A stretch of 64,000 bases of DNA from Narcine bancroftii (taxonomy: Eukaryota). The translations under genes were made by a program, and so were the position numbers. Positions 6,221-42,049 of this stretch are shown piece by piece (position 1 is the stretch's first letter; every line of letters begins with the position of its first letter). Below the pieces are notes generated by a model that saw nothing but the letters and a program-made list of their open reading frames with translations, made no database searches and was not told where the DNA came from. The stretch lies in contig NC_091473.1 in NCBI RefSeq assembly GCF_036971445.1, forward strand, positions 236,716,001-236,780,000, written 5' to 3'.

Positions 6221-6509
6221 CCCTCATTTGTAAGCTAATAAAAGCATTAGTTCTCCCTCCAGTCGTGAGAGCTTTTATTCGCGCTACTATTTTATTAGCT
6301 TATAAGTGAGGGTAGGGTCTCACAGTAGTCTTCAGAATGGTTCTGGGTTTAAGCAGGAAACCAGGGTTATATGTGAGCAGAAGGGGGCAGAGCTAGGAGG
6401 CGGGGGCAGAGCTAGGAGGCGGGGTCAGAGCTAGGAGGCGGGGGCAGAGCTAGGAGGCGGGGTCAGCCATCAGCACAACACACTACCAGTGAATCCCCAG
6501 TTCACTGCA
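6221..6509 (-). mobile_element. Rearranged solo-LTR-like element with an internal 19-bp GC-box tandem repeat
   Basis: Minus strand starts TGCAGTG and contains ~4.4 x GGGG(G/T)CAGAGCTAGGAGGC (6383-6466 on plus), TATAA and AATAAA. The terminal piece ending CGCGCTAC is on the plus strand (6221-6287). Confidence 0.55.
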
Positions 6510-12229: not shown

Positions 12230-12775
12230 ACAGGAATCTCCCAGTGGCCACAATTCCAATTTAGCACCCCATTCTCATGCTGACATGGCTATCCATGGCC
12301 TCATGTACTGTCAGCCCAAGACCACCCATAAATTGGAAGAGCAACACCTAATTTTCCACCTGGGCACTCTTCAACCGGATGGCATTAATATAGACTTCTC
12401 TATTTCTGCTAGACTACTCCTCATTCTCCCTCTCTTCCTCATCACTGACTTTTTTTTTCCTCTAGCTCTCCATCCCCTTCCCTCTCCATTAACAGAGCCA
12501 TCCTTTCTCCCAACCCCCACCCCCTATTTCCTGGCATCCCCTCCCTCCCTTAACCACCTATTACCTCCAGCCTGTTGGATTGTGCTCCTTCCTCACCAGG
12601 TTGTTCAGGTGCCTGCCTACATTTTGTCATACCTTGATGAAGCCCTCAAGTGCAAAATGTTGGTTATATACCTTTATTTTTGCTCTATAAAGTGCACTCT
12701 ATGACCTGCTGAGTTTCTCCAGCATTGTGCTGTAATTTCAATCACAGTGTCTGCAGACTTCTGTGCTTTACTCCA
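12230..12775 (+). mobile_element. Penelope-like element 3' part (end of GIY-YIG domain plus pseudo-LTR)
   Basis: ORF 12285: MAIHGLMYCQPKTTHKLEEQHLIFHLGTLQPDGINIDFS, then a pyrimidine-rich UTR and a terminus with TTGATGA...AAAATGTTGG. Confidence 0.8.
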
Positions 12776-21049: not shown

Positions 21050-22699
21050 AAATCAACAGCAACAAACCAGCAGCCACGGATATAGAGAGATCTCTTTGAG
21101 AATTTTAAAAAGGCTAAAAAAAAGCACAAGTTTGTGACTATTGCCAACAAATTTACAATTGCTTCAGTAGAACAAGTGAGAAAGGTGGAGATTGGGAGGA
21201 AAATTGCAAAATACTACAGGAAACAGGAAATTTTGACAAATATTGTTAGAACAATTTCCCAAGAGTAAATTTTCTGAGAAAGTACAGTTGGAATTAAAGA
21301 GATTAAAAATGGAACAGGAGGAATGAGAAATAGAAGCAGAGGAGAAACATGATCCATTGGTCTTTTTGGGTAAAATTAAAAATAAGAATAGAGGCTTTTT
21401 AAATTGGAGTTTAATTTTACAAGAGTATGATTTGATGATAACATACATAAGGTGAAAGGACAATGTGATAGCCAATTGTCTGTCCAGATGCTAACCTTTG
21501 TAAATTAAATTACTTACTGTGTGCGTTTGCTTTATATTTTGGTTGTGACACTTTAATTAATTACTAACATTTTGTTCTTGCAGACCAACATTTTCTTTGT
21601 GGTTGGGAGGAGTTATGGACTTTTGGACTGTGAACTGTCACTTTAAAGGATGAATTTCTACTGAGAATTGTGTAACATTGATTGTGGCACAGTTCAGTGC
21701 TGGTTTGCCAAGGTCGAGCTATGCAGATAATAAGAGAGGAATGCATTAATTGCTGAGGAGGAGGAGATGATCCCGATTGCTGAGGCAGAGAAAGAGAGAG
21801 AGTTCAGTGGAGCAGCCAGGAGAATACACAGAGACAGAGTTGAGAACAGTTCTGGCTGACTGAATATGAGTGTGACAAAAAGGTCTCTTTGAGGCTGCAG
21901 TTTCAGAAGGAAATTGTGGAAAGCTGTGTGAAAGGCACAGGCTTCATAAGTGTGGTGATTAAAAAAAAAACCTTGAAGAAACCTGCAAAGGATTTGTAAG
22001 TTTATTGCCAAGCAACATCAGTCATTTCTCTCTCTCTCCAGCGTTCATTCTACACTCATTTTGTTATCAATTGAAGAACTGAACTTGGACATTGAACTAT
22101 GAGAGTGAATTCTGTGGACTGTATTTTTGGACTGACTTACTTGACTGGACTGACCTAGGGTTTTGGGGGATGTTTCCTTTTGTTCTTGAATATTGGAGAT
22201 CGACTGTAATGGTCTGGTGTATCCCCCCCACCACATACACTTTATTTATAAAAAATATTTGTATATTTACTATTAAAGGCATATAGTGGGGTTAATTTGG
22301 GCAAGATATATTGTGAAGTTATTAATGAATATAGTTAAAATTTAACCCTTTTGTATTCACAAGATCACAAGCCCATCCAGTCTGCTCCGCGAATCCACCC
22401 TGAGCTAAACTGTTCTCGCTTCCAGTTCCAATTTCCTGCCTTTTCCCCAAATCCCTTGACCTGTCAAATTCCACCCCCGCCCCCCCCACCCAACTTTAAA
22501 CTCCCTCCACAGCTGTATGTGCCAACAAATTCTTGTTGGGTTGGGGGCACATGTCTCAAGACCAGCTACTTTTCCCACACTTTTCCATTTTAAGACTTTG
22601 CATTTGTAGTACAAATTATTATAAATAGCATCCCTTCAAGGGGGGGGGGGGGGCTGTCTTGATCACCAAGGATGATCATGTCCAGTCTCACTGAGCATC

Positions 22700-23335
22700 C
22701 TGAGTTGGTCACTAGGCAACAGTAAGCGAGCACCGCAATCATCGATCGACGCTGCCGGGTGGACTGGTTCGATTACTTCGCCTGGGTGTGTTTACCTCAG
22801 GACGCGCGAGCTGGATGATGAGCGTGTGATTTGAAGCGAGAGGAGGCGCAGAGGGCCTGGGTCGTCGACGATGACAAACGGTAATTGCTCCAACCTCCCC
22901 GTCCACGGGGGTCCCTCGGCCGGCGTGGGCTCGGACGCCTCAGCGAGGCCGGGCTTGAGGACGTGGCCATTCGGGAGAGTTAGGCCTCGGCAGTGAGGAG
23001 CTGGCAGATTGGAGGGCGGGGCGGGTGGGGTGCAGCGAGCTGAGCCGCCGGCTCTCCGACCCCGGGTCGTGCTTGGCAGAGGCGCGGTCGCGACCGTCGG
23101 TCTCGGGTGTTGGTGGGGCCGGGAAACCAAATTGAAGGGCTGCGTGACGGCGGTTGAGTGGCAGCTGTCTCGACCAATCAACAAGCGGCCTGCTTCAACC
23201 CGGTCCTCTTGGACCAATGGCTGAGCCCACGGCTGGGAGGGCGGTGTCAATTTGCAATGTCCCTTTCATCGCACCTTTGCAAGAGAGAACTGCTTGAAAT
23301 CAATTTGGGAAAGGCAAAGGGAGAGATTGGATGCA
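22700..23335. promoter_or_regulatory. CpG-island promoter (probably drives a minus-strand transcript, possibly bidirectional)
   Basis: Clearest GC-rich, CpG-retaining non-repeat stretch in the window. It contains CCAAT boxes (GACCAATCA ~23172, GACCAATGG ~23212, GATTGG ~23007 and ~23325), tandem GC boxes GGGCGGGGCGGG ~23014, a TGACG half-CRE ~23145, an RFX X-box-like GTCACTAGGCAAC ~22708-22720 and a minus-strand donor GAG|GTAAAC at 22796/22795. Confidence 0.8.
22796..22990 (-). other. Candidate first exon of a minus-strand transcript (5' boundary unknown), carrying a 57-aa ORF at 22970-22797
   Basis: Lies in the CpG island and ends at donor CTGAG|GTAAAC. The ATG at 22970 gives MATSSSPASLRRPSPRR...HHPARAS*, stopping 1 nt before the donor. 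No recognisable homology. Confidence 0.4.
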
Positions 23336-23379
23336 AGCCTTGACCAAATAAATACTTGCATTGGGTTTGGTTTAAAAAA

Positions 23380-24818
23380 AAACAATGCTGGAGAAACTTA
23401 GCAGGTCGAACAGTAACTTAGCAGGTCGAACAGTAACTTAGCAGGTCGAACAGTAACTTAGCAGGTCGAACAGTAACTTAGCAGGTCGAACAGTAACTTA
23501 GCAGGTCGAACAGTAACTTAGCAGGTCGAACAGTAACTTAGCAGGTCGAACAGTAACTTAGCAGGTCGAACAGTAACTTAGCAGGTCGAACAGTAACTTA
23601 GCAGGTCGAACAGTAACTTAGCAGGTCGAACAGTAACTTAGCAGGTCGAACAGTAACTTAGCAGGTCGAACAGTAACTTAGCAGGTCGAACAGTAACTTA
23701 GCAGGTCGAACAGTAACTTAGCAGGTCGAACAGTAACTTAGCAGGTCGAACAGTAACTTAGCAGGTCGAACAGTAACTTAGCAGGTCGAACAGTAACTTA
23801 GCAGGTCGAACAGTAACTTAGCAGGTCGAACAGTAACTTAGCAGGTCGAACAGTAACTTAGCAGGTCGAACAGTAACTTAGCAGGTCGAACAGTAACTTA
23901 GCAGGTCGAACAGTAACTTAGCAGGTCGAACAGTAACTTAGCAGGTCGAACAGTAACTTAGCAGGTCGAACAGTAACTTAGCAGGTCGAACAGTAACTTA
24001 GCAGGTCGAACAGTAACTTAGCAGGTCGAACAGTAACTTAGCAGGTCGAACAGTAACTTAGCAGGTCGAACAGTAACTTAGCAGGTCGAACAGTAACTTA
24101 GCAGGTCGAACAGTAACTTAGCAGGTCGAACAGTAACTTAGCAGGTCGAACAGTAACTTAGCAGGTCGAACAGTAACTTAGCAGGTCGAACAGTAACTTA
24201 GCAGGTCGAACAGTAACTTAGCAGGTCGAACAGTAACTTAGCAGGTCGAACAGTAACTTAGCAGGTCGAACAGTAACTTAGCAGGTCGAACAGTAACTTA
24301 GCAGGTCGAACAGTAACTTAGCAGGTCGAACAGTAACTTAGCAGGTCGAACAGTAACTTAGCAGGTCGAACAGTAACTTAGCAGGTCGAACAGTAACTTA
24401 GCAGGTCGAACAGTAACTTAGCAGGTCGAACAGTAACTTAGCAGGTCGAACAGTAACTTAGCAGGTCGAACAGTAACTTAGCAGGTCGAACAGTAACTTA
24501 GCAGGTCGAACAGTAACTTAGCAGGTCGAACAGTAACTTAGCAGGTCGAACAGTAACTTAGCAGGTCGAACAGTAACTTAGCAGGTCGAACAGTAACTTA
24601 GCAGGTCGAACAGTAACTTAGCAGGTCGAACAGTAACTTAGCAGGTCGAACAGTAACTTAGCAGGTCGAACAGTAACTTAGCAGGTCGAACAGTAACTTA
24701 GCAGGTCGAACAGTAACTTAGCAGGTCGAACAGTAACTTAGCAGGTCGAACAGTGTACTTTATTCTGCAAAGATGAAGATACATAACCAACGTTTGGGGC
24801 TTGAGCCCTTCATCAAGT
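23380..24818 (-). mobile_element. Penelope-like element terminus (pseudo-LTR) hosting the minisatellite
   Basis: Collapsing the array to one unit gives acaatgctggagaaacttagcaggtcgaacagtgtacttt...aaccaacgtttggggcttgagcccttcatcaag. This is the reverse complement of the terminus attached to the GIY-YIG remnant at 12630-12730. Confidence 0.8.
23395..24754. repeat. Perfect minisatellite, 68 copies of AACTTAGCAGGTCGAACAGT (20 bp)
   Basis: 1360 bp; every unit is identical on inspection, with no spacers. Confidence 0.99.
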
Positions 24819-25969
24819 TAGAAACACAAAACATTGTATTGCCAGTGACATACTATGGTGGTACAGGAGTCATCCACTTGCCTCCTTGACAAGATCAGAA
24901 CAGCATGTTGATACTGACTGGCTTTTCATCCTTCATCTTCAGATGCAGAAACTGCAGCTGTTGATAACCTGGATAAAAAGAATTTGACCCGGAACATCAA
25001 CAATTTCTCGTTTCTCCCCCACTCCGATGTTAAGTTCTTTTTTTAAAAAAAACCTTGAGAATCTAACTTCTTGGAACAAGCTGCATTAAATCGATCTGCT
25101 CTGGTCAGATAAATCAAAGTAGCTCGCTCATCCCTCAAGAAATAACATGCCACAAATAATTTTAATCGTATTGCATTGGTTCATAACAGTAATTGGGCTT
25201 TATGATGGTCATGGAACATCAGGATTTTGACTTGTTCTAACAAAAAAATAAAACTATGCATATTGATTCAATGTTCACATGTTATAACACTCGTTTCATC
25301 CTTTATTTGTTTTCATTCGTTTTTTTTTCTGTTATAGATTTGATCATTGTAACATTAAACTGGTGAAATATTGCTTTTAAAATTTATCCTTGATCTGGAC
25401 GTAGTTGGTTTTATTGATCCTTCCCTGTCTAATGCAAAACTTGGTAGCAAGTTTAGAAAGCTTAAATCCATAACTTTCAAGGTACAGATAAGCAATTGTA
25501 ATAATGTTGCACTGCTTCTCAGATCTTGATTGAACTTTTAAGAAGATTCATTAGAGGACCAAAATGTAACCAAATTTAAGTTAACTGCTAACTCGTCAAC
25601 TGTAGACACATTCAGGTTTTCCAGTATTTTTATTCATTCAAAACCATAAACCATCAAATTATCTACATTCACGTCAATGTTAAAGCAAGGAAAAAGTAGT
25701 CTTTTATGATGGAAATTACACTGGTGACGTTGCAACAAGAACAACTGACTCATTTAGATCAGTGCATTTTGTGGCCTTCAAATACACTTACATTTATGCC
25801 GAAAAGTATCCTATTGTATTGAAATATGATAAAACTGTCCTGAACTTGAGCAACAGCCACAAGAAATTTGTAAATGAGCTGTATTACAGATGCTAGAAGT
25901 TACTGCCCCACTATTCATGATCTTGTTTTACCACAATCTAGCAAATGCATTCAATTAAAACAAAACTTT

Positions 25970-26490
25970 TATATAACCATATAACAATTTAGCACAGAAC
26001 ACCTTCCCCTACCCAGTCCCATTGACCAGTTCCTGGCCCATAACCCTCCACAACTCTCTCGTCCATATACCTATCCAACGTTTCCTTAAATATTAAAATT
26101 GAACCCCCATCTTCCACTTTCGCCAGAAACTCATTCCACACTCCCACCACCCTCTGAGTGAAGAAATTCCCCCTCATGTTTCCCCTAAATTTTTCCCCCT
26201 TCAATCTCAATCCATAAAACCATATAACGATTTACGGAGCGGAAACAGGCCATGTTGGCCTTTTCGAGTCCGCACCGGTTCACTGATTTTGTGCGCCCTC
26301 TTCAGGCATTGGTCCCGGTAATGTCTTCTTGTTTGAATCTCCCCCACTCTCAATGGAAAAAGCCTGTCCACATTGACTCTATCTGTCCCCTTCACAATTT
26401 TAAATACCTCTATCAAATCACCCCCCAATCTTCCATGTTCCAGGGAATAAAGTCCCAGCCTGCTCAACCTTTCCCTGTAACTCAAACCCT
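25970..26490 (-). mobile_element. CR1 LINE 3' end with (GGTTATAT)-type tail, interrupted at 26216-26321
   Basis: SYRERLSRLGLYSLE...GDLIEVFKI and RGNFFTQRVVGVWN motifs. Confidence 0.88.
26216..26321 (-). mobile_element. Short chimeric retroposon (Rex1-like piece plus CR1-like 3' tail), copy 1
   Basis: Close reverse complement of 60113-60212; CpG-rich; inserted inside a CR1. Confidence 0.75.
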
Positions 26491-27149
26491 ATCTCACTTT
26501 TGGGAATGTACTATTCAAATAATTGAGTCGTCACTGGCTTTTTTTAAACAAAATATTTATGTATTCAAAGAAAATGAATAAACTGGGAAGAGGTTCAAAT
26601 ATTCACAGTCAGTATGTTGTACAGTTGTCATTTATTCAATATTTGAAAGCACCACTTACTCAATCCTCTTTACCACATTGTGTAGAGAGATGAGGTGAAT
26701 GTGGCATTCCACATTGGCCATTGTTCATCTTTTAGGCTGAAAAGATTAATTGGCAAGACATTTTAAAATGGAGTCCAACTTTAATATTGCATTGTCATTG
26801 ACCAGTGTGCTAGCTCCTACCATAATGCGCAATGCTGAGCCTTTCTGAACAAGGGCTGTTTCCAGCCCACAGAAGGTCTTTGTCAGCTGTTTGACCCCAA
26901 GCTTGCCAGTTGTCAAACCCACTGTTCAAATTGAATGTTTATGAATGCTAAAATTACTTGGGCACTTTTTTTTCAAAACTACTACAATAAAATCTTGCAA
27001 AGATTAAATATTTCATTATGTTAAATAAATAAATAAAGAGACTGGTTTCAACTTGTTGCAAAAGCAATTATTTCTCCTCGTTCATTTTATTATATGTGTT
27101 GGCCTTGCAGCAGATGTATCCTGCATGGACTTTGGGAACAGATTCCCCA

Positions 27150-28240
27150 AGTGAAACATGATAGGCTGCAGATGCTGTGATTATAGTAAACACATCGAAA
27201 TGCTAGAGGAACTCAGCCAGTCTTTTCAGCATTTAAAGGAGTCAAAGATAGATTGCCGACATTTTAGGCCTGAGCCCTTCATCAAAGAAAAGGCAGAAGC
27301 AGAGTGTATCAGAAAGTCTCAGAATTCAAACAATGGGGGAGGAATCTAGACCAACAAAAGGTGTTAATTGAATATGATAAGGGACGAGTACGTAAGAATT
27401 TATCAGGCCTGTGCAAAAGAAGACAGAGAAAGGAGAGATGACAGGGGAAGAAGGGGTTGGGAGTGGGGTTTAACGAAAGCCAAAGAAGTTGATATTAATA
27501 AGGAAATGGGATGGAGAGCGGAAATGGGAGGTCATTGGAGATCCACACTATTGTGACAGATGGAGCCGAGTTCCTCAACAAAGCGATCTCCCAGTCTGCA
27601 TCTAGTCTCTTCGATGTAGAGGAAACCACAGCGGAGCTCTGGATGCAATAGATGACCCCTGCAGATACACAAGTGAAAAATGTTGCTTCACTTGGAAGGA
27701 CTGTTTTGAGCCCCAAATGGTACTGAGGAAGGAGGTGTGGGCACAGGGGTAGGTCCCAAGGGGACGATTGGTGGGGAAGGAGAAGTAGATAAAGGAGTCA
27801 TGGAGGGAGAGGTCCCTTTGGAAGGTGGAGGGGAAGGACAGGGGAATATGTGACTAGCGGTGGGATCATGTAGCGGGTGGCAGAAATTGTGGAGGAGGAT
27901 GTGTTGGATGCAGAGGCTAATGGGATGTTAAGTGAGGACAAGGGGAATCCTGTCCTTGTGTGTGGGGGCGGAGGGGGCCAAGGAAGATGTGCGGGTAATG
28001 GAGGATATGTGGGTGGGTGCCGAGATGATGGTGGTAGAGGGAAAGCCACATTGTTTAAAGAAGGACATCTCTGACGATCTGGCATGGAAATCCTCATTCT
28101 GGGTGCGGATGCAATGGAGACAGAGGAAATGAGAAAATGGAATGGAATCCTTATAGGGGGCAGGATGGAAAGAGGTGTAGTTAAGTAGCTGTGGGTTGAT
28201 TTTTAGAAGATGCCTGTTGAGAATTTGTCTCCATGATGAG
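27150..28240 (-). mobile_element. Penelope-like element remnant
   Basis: HPAPYKDSIPFSHFLCLHCI..., RIPLVLT, FTCVSAGVIYCIQ (end of RT and GIY-YIG), plus terminus at 27150-27290. Confidence 0.8.
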
Positions 28241-28730: not shown

Positions 28731-29884
28731 CAAGCTATATAACCAAATCCTTCAATCCTAATAAGCAAGATTTATAACATCCTTGATATAATGAACAAGA
28801 ACCCTTGGCATTCATATAATTTGTTCATAAATTGCAAAAATTTAGTGCAAAGTTCAGTGCATTGACAGTTTCATTCTCGTGAATCATCTCTGCACCTTTT
28901 CCAGCTTAATAAATCCTTCTAATAGCTGAGGACCAAAAATGCACACAATATTCTATATGTGGCCTCACCAACATTTGATGAACCCAATTTGTTCAGGTCA
29001 AAGCCTCAAACATCTAAATATTTCTCTTTGTGCATCTGATGAATTGACACATTTATTTGTAATTTCAGTTTCCTTTAATTTTGAAGCAGACTTGCTTGGC
29101 CTACTTAACTAAAATATTCTTCCATGTGCTTCTTTTTTGGGTTGTCATTAATAAATGATAATTCATCAACATAAAATAAGGATGATAGAATTCTTTGTGG
29201 GTTCATTATTTAAATAGCTTTTTCTCTTAGCACTGTTGAGTGATGTAATACAAAAGCAGACTGCTTGTGCCTGAAAATTTGTAGTATAATTCGTACAGAT
29301 TTTTATAACTATCAAATATGTCTTAAATGTGTCTGATTTTCTTTTAATGAAGTTTCTCATGTTTTACAGTATATTCTTTCGATGGGCTCCTGGTATTTGG
29401 TTTGCTCTTTATATGCACCTGTGCATACTTAAAGAAAGTTCCACGGCTGAATAAATGGTTACTTTCCGAAAAGAAAGGGGTTTGGGGTGTATTTTACAAA
29501 GGTAAACAGAGTGATGAAGATCAAGATTCAATTTATTGTCATTTAATAAAACAGTGTCATTTTATACAAAATTGCTTTTGCCTGCTGTAAGACAGACAGA
29601 TTCGCTATCGGTAGAAATTGTCGGAAGTGCCTCTTATAATCAGAGAAAGAAAGCCAAAAGAGAGTCCTACCACCACCCCCCCCCCCCCCCCAGAGTCCCG
29701 AGTGTCTGTAGTTTCACCTCCAACACTTCTGCAGCCACACAGTGTCCAGTCCAAACCATTGGCAACCTGAGGTCCAGATCTGAACCTTCGACACAATCAG
29801 GAGCCCTTCAGTGCCTTCGGCACCCCTTGCATCTCAGAATGCATGTAGTGAAACACGAAAGTAGGCAGGTGCCATGACTGTATT

Positions 29885-30072
29885 AAAAGCACAGAAATGC
29901 CGGAGGAACTCAGCAGGTAGCATCTGTAGGAGATAAAGATATATAACCGAGATTTCAGGCCGGAGCACTTCTTGAAAAAGAGCTCAGGTCTGAAACATCG
30001 GTTATATATCTTTACCTTCTATGGATGCTGTAAGACCAGCTGTGTTTCTCCAGCATTTCTGTGGCTTTACTA
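29885..30072. mobile_element. Palindromic element made of two inverted PLE termini
   Basis: Left and right halves are imperfect reverse complements (cacagaaatg...aaagatatataaccga / tcggttatatatcttt...catttctgtg). Confidence 0.7.
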
Positions 30073-30732: not shown

Positions 30733-31639
30733 TTAATCTTTGAAATGTTCCTGAATAAGATTGCAGTTTATTTAAATTTCCAGTCTTTGTAAACAGTAGA
30801 AAATAGTTAACATTGCATGAATTACTAAATGAAACTTTGTTTCCTTACAGCTGCAGTTATAGGAACAAGGCTTCATGTACCAGTGGCACTGTCATGCCTT
30901 GTCACAGGTGTTTATGTTTTATTTATTAAATGACACCCACAGTCCAAAGTTGACCATGACTCTGAGAGGAACAATATATTTTCAAGATCACTCAATAAGG
31001 ATTAAGATCAGAAAATGTTTTCCTTCTGTAGAAGAACAGAACATTCTGCCAATTACTCTCTTGTGGAGATGCTTGTCAGGAATACAGGCCAATGGGAAAC
31101 TTATAGTCTGATTGAATGTGTCTCTAAATTCCATGATGAGGGGAAACATCGAAACTTCCACGTCACTTAAAAGAAACATTGTGATGGACTAGTCAGATAA
31201 TTAAAGAAGATGTTTGATTATTACAGTTGTAAAGGAAGTATTTATGTAGTTTGGTAACCTTGTTAAAATATTTTAATTGAAGCATCTGATGCATTCTAAA
31301 TTTAATAAGTTACAAGTTTTCATGTTTAATTAAAAGTTGGTTTTGACTTCTTTTGTCTAAAATAATGAGATTTTTGTACCTTGGTGCAGTTGACTGTTCG
31401 CTTCTGTCTTCCTAAAATTATATGTATTATAGGTTAATAATAAAAATAATTATGTATTCATAATTTAGTGTTGTAAAGCTTCAAAATGGGAAATAAAGGG
31501 AATATAATTTTATTTTTAATAGTCCATTGAAATCTAATTCACATTATAGCCAAAGGAACTTTACCCAACCCATCTATAATTGGTTAATTAGTTGGACCGA
31601 ATACTGGAAGTTAAAGTAGTGATTTTCTGAATAAGCTTC

Positions 31640-41100: not shown

Positions 41101-42049
41101 CTGTTCCAGTTTGTCTAATGTCCAAATTGATCCACATGTTATGTACATGACAGCAGTGATAAAAATGAGCCCAGACCATGTAATATTTAAAATAATATTT
41201 TTAATTATTAAGCCACAATTATATAACACCTAATCTAATTTTAACTAACTTTAATTATTTATATACAATTATCTAACATAAACGTTAACTATGTGCGAAT
41301 ATATGTGTGTGTGTGGAATATCCCATGCCACTACAGCTCAAGGTTCCATTTTCGGAAGGCAGTTCAAAGTTCAGTTTCAGAAATTCTGTGGTGACATGTG
41401 GGCTTGAAATTGATGCGACACGCAGGTTTTAGATGATTGAGACACACAGGCCTTAGATGAATGCGACATGCAGATTTTAAGATGGGTGAGACATTCAAGG
41501 TTTTAAGTGGATGCAACATGCAGGTTTTAAGATGGGTGAGACACACAGGCCTTAAGATGAAGTCAACAGTTCCTGTAGTGGGTAAAAGAGACTGGGATGA
41601 GAGAATGGTGATTACTCACGACCCCCTTGCTGAGGTGCTTCAGAGAAATGTCCTTTGAAGATGACTGCCTTCTTCTACAGTTAGAACCCTTTTTTGTGGG
41701 TCGGTCGAGTAGAGTGCAGTACTTCTTCTGCAACTTTAAGACTCTTTTCATGGGTCATTCAAAGTGGTCTCTCATCCCTCTATCAGCCTCTTGAGCAAAA
41801 TGAATACTGTCTTTTCAAAAAGCTGGTCACATGGTCTCAGCCCCTGGCTTCTCTAGGGTTGCCCCCCTTCACTTTGCAAATGTATCAACTTTTTTGGAGC
41901 ATGCTGTCTTCGAAACCTGCTGCTGTTCAGTCACTTTCCGAATCCTGCAGGCTTTTGCTAAATCTATTCTCTTAAAGTGACAGTCCCACACAATAAAATG
42001 AAATGGAAAATAGGAGAACATCACACACAGATGAAGCAATAGCAACCCT

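Follow-up and report, generated by a model that had tools for sequence, protein, structure and literature searches.

A perfect 20-nt minisatellite in an old Penelope-like element fragment of Kish-B intron 1 and its probable late expansion

How did 68 identical copies of a 20-mer come to lie inside the end of a Penelope-like element (PLE), close to a CpG island of Narcine bancroftii, and do they matter to the neighbouring gene? PLEs are, through their reverse transcriptase (RT), the closest retroelement relatives of telomerase. The initial annotation of this locus offered two origins: reiterative, telomerase-like copying of a short template segment during insertion, or an ordinary later expansion of a variable-number tandem repeat (VNTR). 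All positions below are those of the window, the whole 64,000-nt stretch of DNA that was analysed; the array is intronic, and some 21 Mb separate it from the end of its 258-Mb contig.

The array and its place in Kish-B

Repeat analysis returned exactly 68.0 head-to-tail copies of one 20-mer, as first annotated, with 0 differences across 1,360 nt and a period that ends abruptly on both sides, not one base further. Such an array appeared 0 times in 100 shuffles, and its unit falls within the range of about 10–60 nt that defines a minisatellite. Its GC content is 45%, and its 5 CpG per 100 nt amount to half the density of the nearby island (9.5). A check of its coding potential found stops in all frames, and the predicted folding of four units is weak (-6.6 and -3.0 kcal/mol, values that carry no shuffle control). 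Two smaller minisatellites occur in the window, at 6383-6466 (19 nt x 4.4) and 41412-41568 (24-25 nt x 6). The array and the features around it are as follows.

22621..23300, no strand: CpG island covering the start of Kish-B, its first exon and the 5' portion of its first intron (GC 0.64, CpG observed/expected 0.95)
22767..22880, plus strand: Kish-B (TMEM167B) exon 1, with ATG at 22871 and GT donor at 22881 (X6 contig and reading frame)
23395..24754, no strand: minisatellite, 68.0 x 20 nt, one CpG per unit, unit identity 100% (repeat analysis and read-contig depth ratio)
24969..26659, minus strand: GT-AG intron of an antisense transcript (one X6 contig joins 24968 to 26660; one run, one study)
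29370..29501, plus strand: Kish-B exon 2 (PF06842, E 2.5e-13; top homologues named protein kish-B)
30851..30933, plus strand: Kish-B exon 3, coding part (reading frame)

The contig of run X6 spans 22767-22880 and then departs at the GT donor. Joined in frame, the three exons give a 74-aa protein whose top homologues come from cartilaginous fish. With exons at 22767-22880, at 29370-29501 and from 30851, the array must lie within the 6.5-kb intron 1 of Kish-B, 515 nt beyond the first donor. It had been described as standing directly beside a CpG-island promoter. The island and its proximity were borne out (the last island CpG, at 23270, is 125 nt before the array, which starts 95-125 nt past the island), but the array is downstream of the transcription start, not upstream of it. 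A putative RFX X-box-like site (22708-22720) precedes exon 1 by about 50 nt, and putative GC-box and CCAAT-like motifs occur in the intronic part of the island (23016-23027, 23175-23222). Elsewhere in the window, young RTE-type LINE copies mimic islands, being CpG-rich and 97-99% identical to a copy at genomic locus L113 (19070-20780, 33046-33506, 43736-44617 and 49810-50530).

X5 and X6, the two RNA-type runs in which the repeat also occurs, cover Kish-B exon 1 to high depth. Neither run covers 22902-23335, a gap given no weight here because it comes from one study and a filter can leave holes. In both runs contigs start at 24942, where there is a good plus-strand AG acceptor, and their depth is about a tenth of that of exon 1. 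The plus strand from 24943 onward is probably a cryptic or alternative Kish-B exon, and use of this acceptor would be predicted to yield a truncated Kish-B peptide of 37 aa, no junction having been seen. On the minus strand, the antisense transcript has an exon segment at 26660-26736, followed by an exon that runs from 24968 toward the array. This transcript has no long reading frame, a motif scan was blank, and Pfam matched 0 of 61 stop-free frames chosen by hand from the 988 that are 35 aa or longer.

The reality of the array was assessed from read-derived contigs, which stand in for spanning reads and whose depth is a rough measure and not a copy number. Contigs from four of the eight listed runs (X1, X5, X6 and X8) were compared with both array flanks. 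Runs X5-X7 are RNA by our guess, as no run is recorded as RNA, and X5 and X6 belong to one study. In X1, depth was 460 for a 50-nt cyclic repeat contig and only 6.8 and 6.5 for the two flanks, a ratio of 67.6-70.8; 68 units would predict 66.5. This run is possibly the assembly's own sample, and although the check does not rely on the assembler, it may rest on the same animal. The same cyclic unit was present in 4/4 runs compared (4 sample codes, 3 studies). Perfect arrays can be mis-sized and no spanning read was seen among the contigs, yet an assembly artefact, or a greatly over-assembled array, is hardly credible given the depth ratio of X1 and the unit common to all runs compared, and we rejected it. 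We conclude that the array is real DNA. The repeat/flank ratio of contig depth, which is not copy number, is 4-14 in X5 and X6 (other samples, RNA-type) and about 9 in the low-depth X8, a run labelled as another organism (B). The share of words in X8 was small and none of its contigs joined the array to a flank, which leaves its placement at the orthologous locus uncertain. These lower ratios hint, without proving it, at shorter alleles elsewhere.

The host fragment and the age of the expansion

Removal of 67 units leaves a 105-nt sequence that restores a PLE terminus, as the initial annotation had proposed: it is 80.8% identical over 99 nt to the copy at 12630-12728 (minus strand) and 87-91% identical to the 29 best genomic relatives examined. 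The repeated unit is thus colinear with a segment of the transposon and flanked by its remainder. Three features describe the host.

23376..24820, element sense minus: host fragment, end of a PLE, 105 nt when collapsed, without an ORF (alignment to relatives)
24759..24764, minus strand: AATAAA hexamer, candidate poly(A) signal, 4 nt before the array
24791..24817, minus strand: minimal hammerhead-like motif of the PLE end (by eye)

The family is abundant: across the 3.3 Gb of the genome, the core 21-mer of the PLE end is matched exactly 11,159 times. Its membership is drawn from locus L098, where RT frames, a GIY-YIG frame and, about 220 nt further downstream, a PLE end of 81% identity follow each other on the same strand. 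The RT domain there is clear (RVT_1, E 1.8e-23), and the GIY-YIG match is weak and below the Pfam cut-off (E 0.0027); the two longer homologues found (2/2) are RT proteins of 904 aa, one of them annotated with GIY-YIG. RT plus GIY-YIG is the layout of canonical PLEs according to the available text of PMC11167929. The PLE end was detected in 14/15 loci selected for their ORF. Judged by these alignments and domains, the host is the end of an abundant Penelope-like element, old, truncated and decayed. More PLE fragments occur in the window at 27160-28240, also in Kish-B intron 1, and at 29900-30060 in intron 2, where two ends form a head-to-head pair.

Minimal hammerheads (min-HHRs) have been described in PLE ends (PMC4209133, in the text available), and a hammerhead-like motif was visible by eye in 27/29 relatives; Rfam gave 0 matches at the gathering threshold. 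In the window, the conserved G of the GAAA box has changed to C at 24796, and for this reason the motif is likely inactive. The repeated 20-mer sits between the motif and the 3' end of the element. The AATAAA hexamer was flagged at the equivalent place in 3/29 relatives, a count from a regular expression that missed the place in several rows.

The age of the expansion can be compared with that of its host. The fragment differs from the family majority at 9/105 columns (8.6%), within a range of 2.9-14.3% among the 29 relatives, which are best BLAST hits and not a random sample. Were the units as old as the insertion, about 117 differences would be expected among them at this divergence; 0 were seen (P ~1e-53). 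The 95% bound on divergence within the array is 0.22%, or about 2.6% of that of the host. The contrast between 9/105 differences in the host and 0/1,360 in the array indicates that the expansion, or at least the last homogenisation, is recent and far younger than the insertion, in keeping with the very young array first annotated. Purity dates only this last event, and the first duplication could be as old as the insertion.

The retention of a CpG in every unit follows from the same youth, which suffices as an explanation. A 37-nt array of the same family keeps its CpG too, and neither of its ends has an island closer than 1.5 kb. The host's CpG is retained in only 2 of the first 100 family cores among the matches listed.

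Registers across the family and the origin of the array

If the RT had created the array, the same register might be found at independent loci, and such recurrence was looked for across the genome. The exact 20-nt dimer has 67/67 of its genomic matches inside the window array, and the core repeated at period 20 has these 67 matches plus one with an unrelated spacer, against 4 in a reversed control. The expected recurrence is thus missing for this register. Other copies of the PLE end are expanded, but in registers that differ (14, 37, 41 and 57 nt). The counts are lower bounds, as they hold among the matches listed and further loci exist; a 31-nt match on C27, apparently not in the element, was left out. 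The main arrays are listed here, the last three having the hammerhead-like segment as their unit and a purity of 92-95%.

C1:219.457 Mb onward (L102): 57-nt array, far end not located, 95% at left edge (99 of the first 100 matches listed, of 6,322)
C15:244.389-244.533+ Mb (L090): 41-nt array, at least 144 kb among the matches listed, far end not located, 85% at left edge
C9:187.100-187.118 Mb (L100/L101): 37-nt array, about 17 kb, 91%
C1:248.662-248.677 Mb (L105/L106): 14-nt array, about 14 kb, 76-80%
C5:166.86 Mb (L113): 13 x 42 nt
C9:174.97 Mb (L116): 11 x 36 nt
C213:75 kb (L118): 29 x 34 nt

Two-copy duplications of 14, 22 and 42 nt also occur in PLE-end copies, and the matches listed contain about 19 duplications or arrays derived from this one end, the smallest with 2 copies and the largest spanning over 100 kb. 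One 14-nt register is found at three loci (C1:248.66 Mb, L105; C1:256.98 Mb, L107; C8:170.75 Mb, L108); a 4-nt direct repeat flanks it, and slippage by DNA polymerase and by RT would fit equally. In a control segment of the same element, the part with the hammerhead, duplications with periods of 19-42 nt accounted for 32 matches at 9 loci. Such expansions are therefore background, and since core and control segments are both duplicated, duplication extends along the whole end in varied registers. The idea that the 3'-terminal segment is a special hotspot was not supported (control 9 loci, core at least 6 among the matches listed, of 720).

These data bear unequally on the possible origins. Within an old PLE fragment of Kish-B intron 1, this perfect 20-nt minisatellite in all likelihood arose by local duplication and expanded recently, through slippage or recombination, long after insertion. 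That is the later VNTR expansion which the initial annotation gave as its second option, and it agrees with a purity that postdates insertion, with a dimer confined to one locus and with the varied registers elsewhere. A truncated PLE end would have inserted long ago and then decayed by about 9%. An in situ duplication of one 20-nt segment would have followed, perhaps aided by a 4-nt near-repeat at a spacing of 21 nt, which is the nearest approach to a realignment overlap at the ends of the unit, where the exact overlap is 0 nt; since exact microhomology is absent at this register, simple slippage does not explain the first duplication. The dimer would then have reached 68 units in the final few percent of the time that the fragment has existed; replication slippage, unequal exchange and conversion could each have driven this growth, and the data do not distinguish among them. 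A search for the SSXRD family, bearing on PRDM9 status, was blank in this genome and likewise in control genomes, a result that carries no information. The number of units probably differs between animals, and the array is probably neutral. A counter-point to late expansion comes from the available text of PMC3389668, which suggests that retrotransposition may help to start such repeats.

The insertion itself could have contributed in two ways. Telomerase realignment needs a short repeat at both ends of the template. A PLE RT that copied a 20-nt template segment 68 times in this fashion would be favoured by the position of the unit, about 19 nt from the element 3' end and near the presumed target-primed start. 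This origin is nonetheless highly improbable, as it failed the three tests run: there is no realignment repeat at the unit ends, the register is unique despite 11,159 core matches, and the pure repeats are not as old as an insertion whose host is 8.6% diverged. Nor does the available text of PMC11167929 report reiteration by the purified PLE protein, for which it describes internal initiation and a tail of 30-40 nt. An RT that slipped only once at insertion would instead have left a two-unit seed, later expanded and homogenised at the DNA level into 68 pure units. The purity of the array cannot date the first duplication, one 14-nt register does recur at three loci, and the starts of human transposon-derived repeats have been linked to young, active elements (PMC3389668, in the text available). 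Against such a seed, the 20-nt register does not recur, no degenerate edge unit left from an old dimer is seen, and the direct repeat around the 14-nt register serves DNA slippage equally well, which leaves it a slim chance.

Local duplication followed by recent expansion also has precedents. In humans, 23% of mini- and satellites are transposon-derived, most of them at a single locus and grown by local duplication (PMC3389668, available text). The array resembles those minisatellites in its single locus, in its internal retroelement piece with element flanks on both sides and in its growth by local duplication, but it descends from a PLE end, in the genome of a cartilaginous fish, and its 68 units at 100% are far above the mean of 2.3-2.4 units given there for Alu-derived repeats. 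Reptile satellites derived from SINEs retain intact element flanks (Vassetzky et al. 2023, PMC10702118, available text). As in those squamate satellites, many independent arrays of one abundant short repeat are found in varied registers, there from 2 to about 1000 units, and the terminal units run on into the parent element; here, the parent is a PLE end and not a SINE, the unit is 20 nt and the locus intronic. With the pseudo-LTRs of PLEs (Cervera and de la Pena 2014, PMC4209133, available text), the host shares a min-HHR-like motif and a truncated end standing alone, as most genomic copies do. Unlike in that system, the repeated 20-mer is outside the ribozyme motif and a core base is changed, so this is not a retrozyme array. 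With telomerase and the Poseidon PLE RT (PMC11167929, available text), the locus shares a related RT family and a perfect head-to-tail short repeat; it differs from telomerase repeat addition in having no alignment overlap, no recurrent register, an array much younger than its insertion and an internal chromosomal site. By its sequence features, the array belongs to the transposon-derived minisatellites known in human and squamates. PLE-derived minisatellites in cartilaginous fish were absent from the titles and abstract openings searched, a search outside which most subscription journals lie and which does not imply that they are unpublished.

Possible role at Kish-B and significance

Selection could also have kept or enlarged the array as a tuner of Kish-B, by affecting methylation at the island edge, splicing to the cryptic acceptor (24943) or antisense termination. 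The island is indeed 95-125 nt away, both X5 and X6 have contigs that start at a good acceptor at 24942, and the antisense exon and the AATAAA hexamer both abut the array; in humans, thousands of VNTRs, and often those near promoters, are associated with the expression or methylation of their surroundings (bioRxiv 10.1101/2020.12.16.423078, available text). However, exon 1 is deep in both RNA-type runs carrying the repeat, the array is recent and apparently variable, and none of the 7 other arrays of at least 10 copies is beside a true island. Within 1.5 kb of these (2 checked on one side only; a small sample), the only CpG-rich patch, at L113, is a young RTE copy. A preference of such arrays for CpG islands was rejected, with 0/7 large arrays against 1/41 control loci passing the island filter, and the position of the array looks incidental in this sample. 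Selection for tuning is very unlikely on this evidence.

Taken as a late, local expansion, this single locus matters little in itself, although it is well suited as a population marker and might be used to relate allele length to Kish-B expression. A telomerase-like origin, if borne out, would have given in vivo evidence of repeat addition by telomerase's closest retroelement relative. The wider interest is in the family, as the roughly 19 listed duplications and arrays of one PLE end form a natural series for the origin of satellites from transposon ends. There is an outside chance of a bolder picture, in which the array is a regulatory repeat of strongly variable length (68 units here, about 10 in certain other animals) set on an antisense poly(A) signal given by the PLE, with a cryptic Kish-B acceptor 190 nt downstream of the array. 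Its unit number would then tune Kish-B output, and it would at the same time be the youngest of many satellites seeded by one hammerhead-bearing PLE end. If this were true, the series would run from dimers to arrays of more than 100 kb, and the birth of a satellite could be followed stage by stage.
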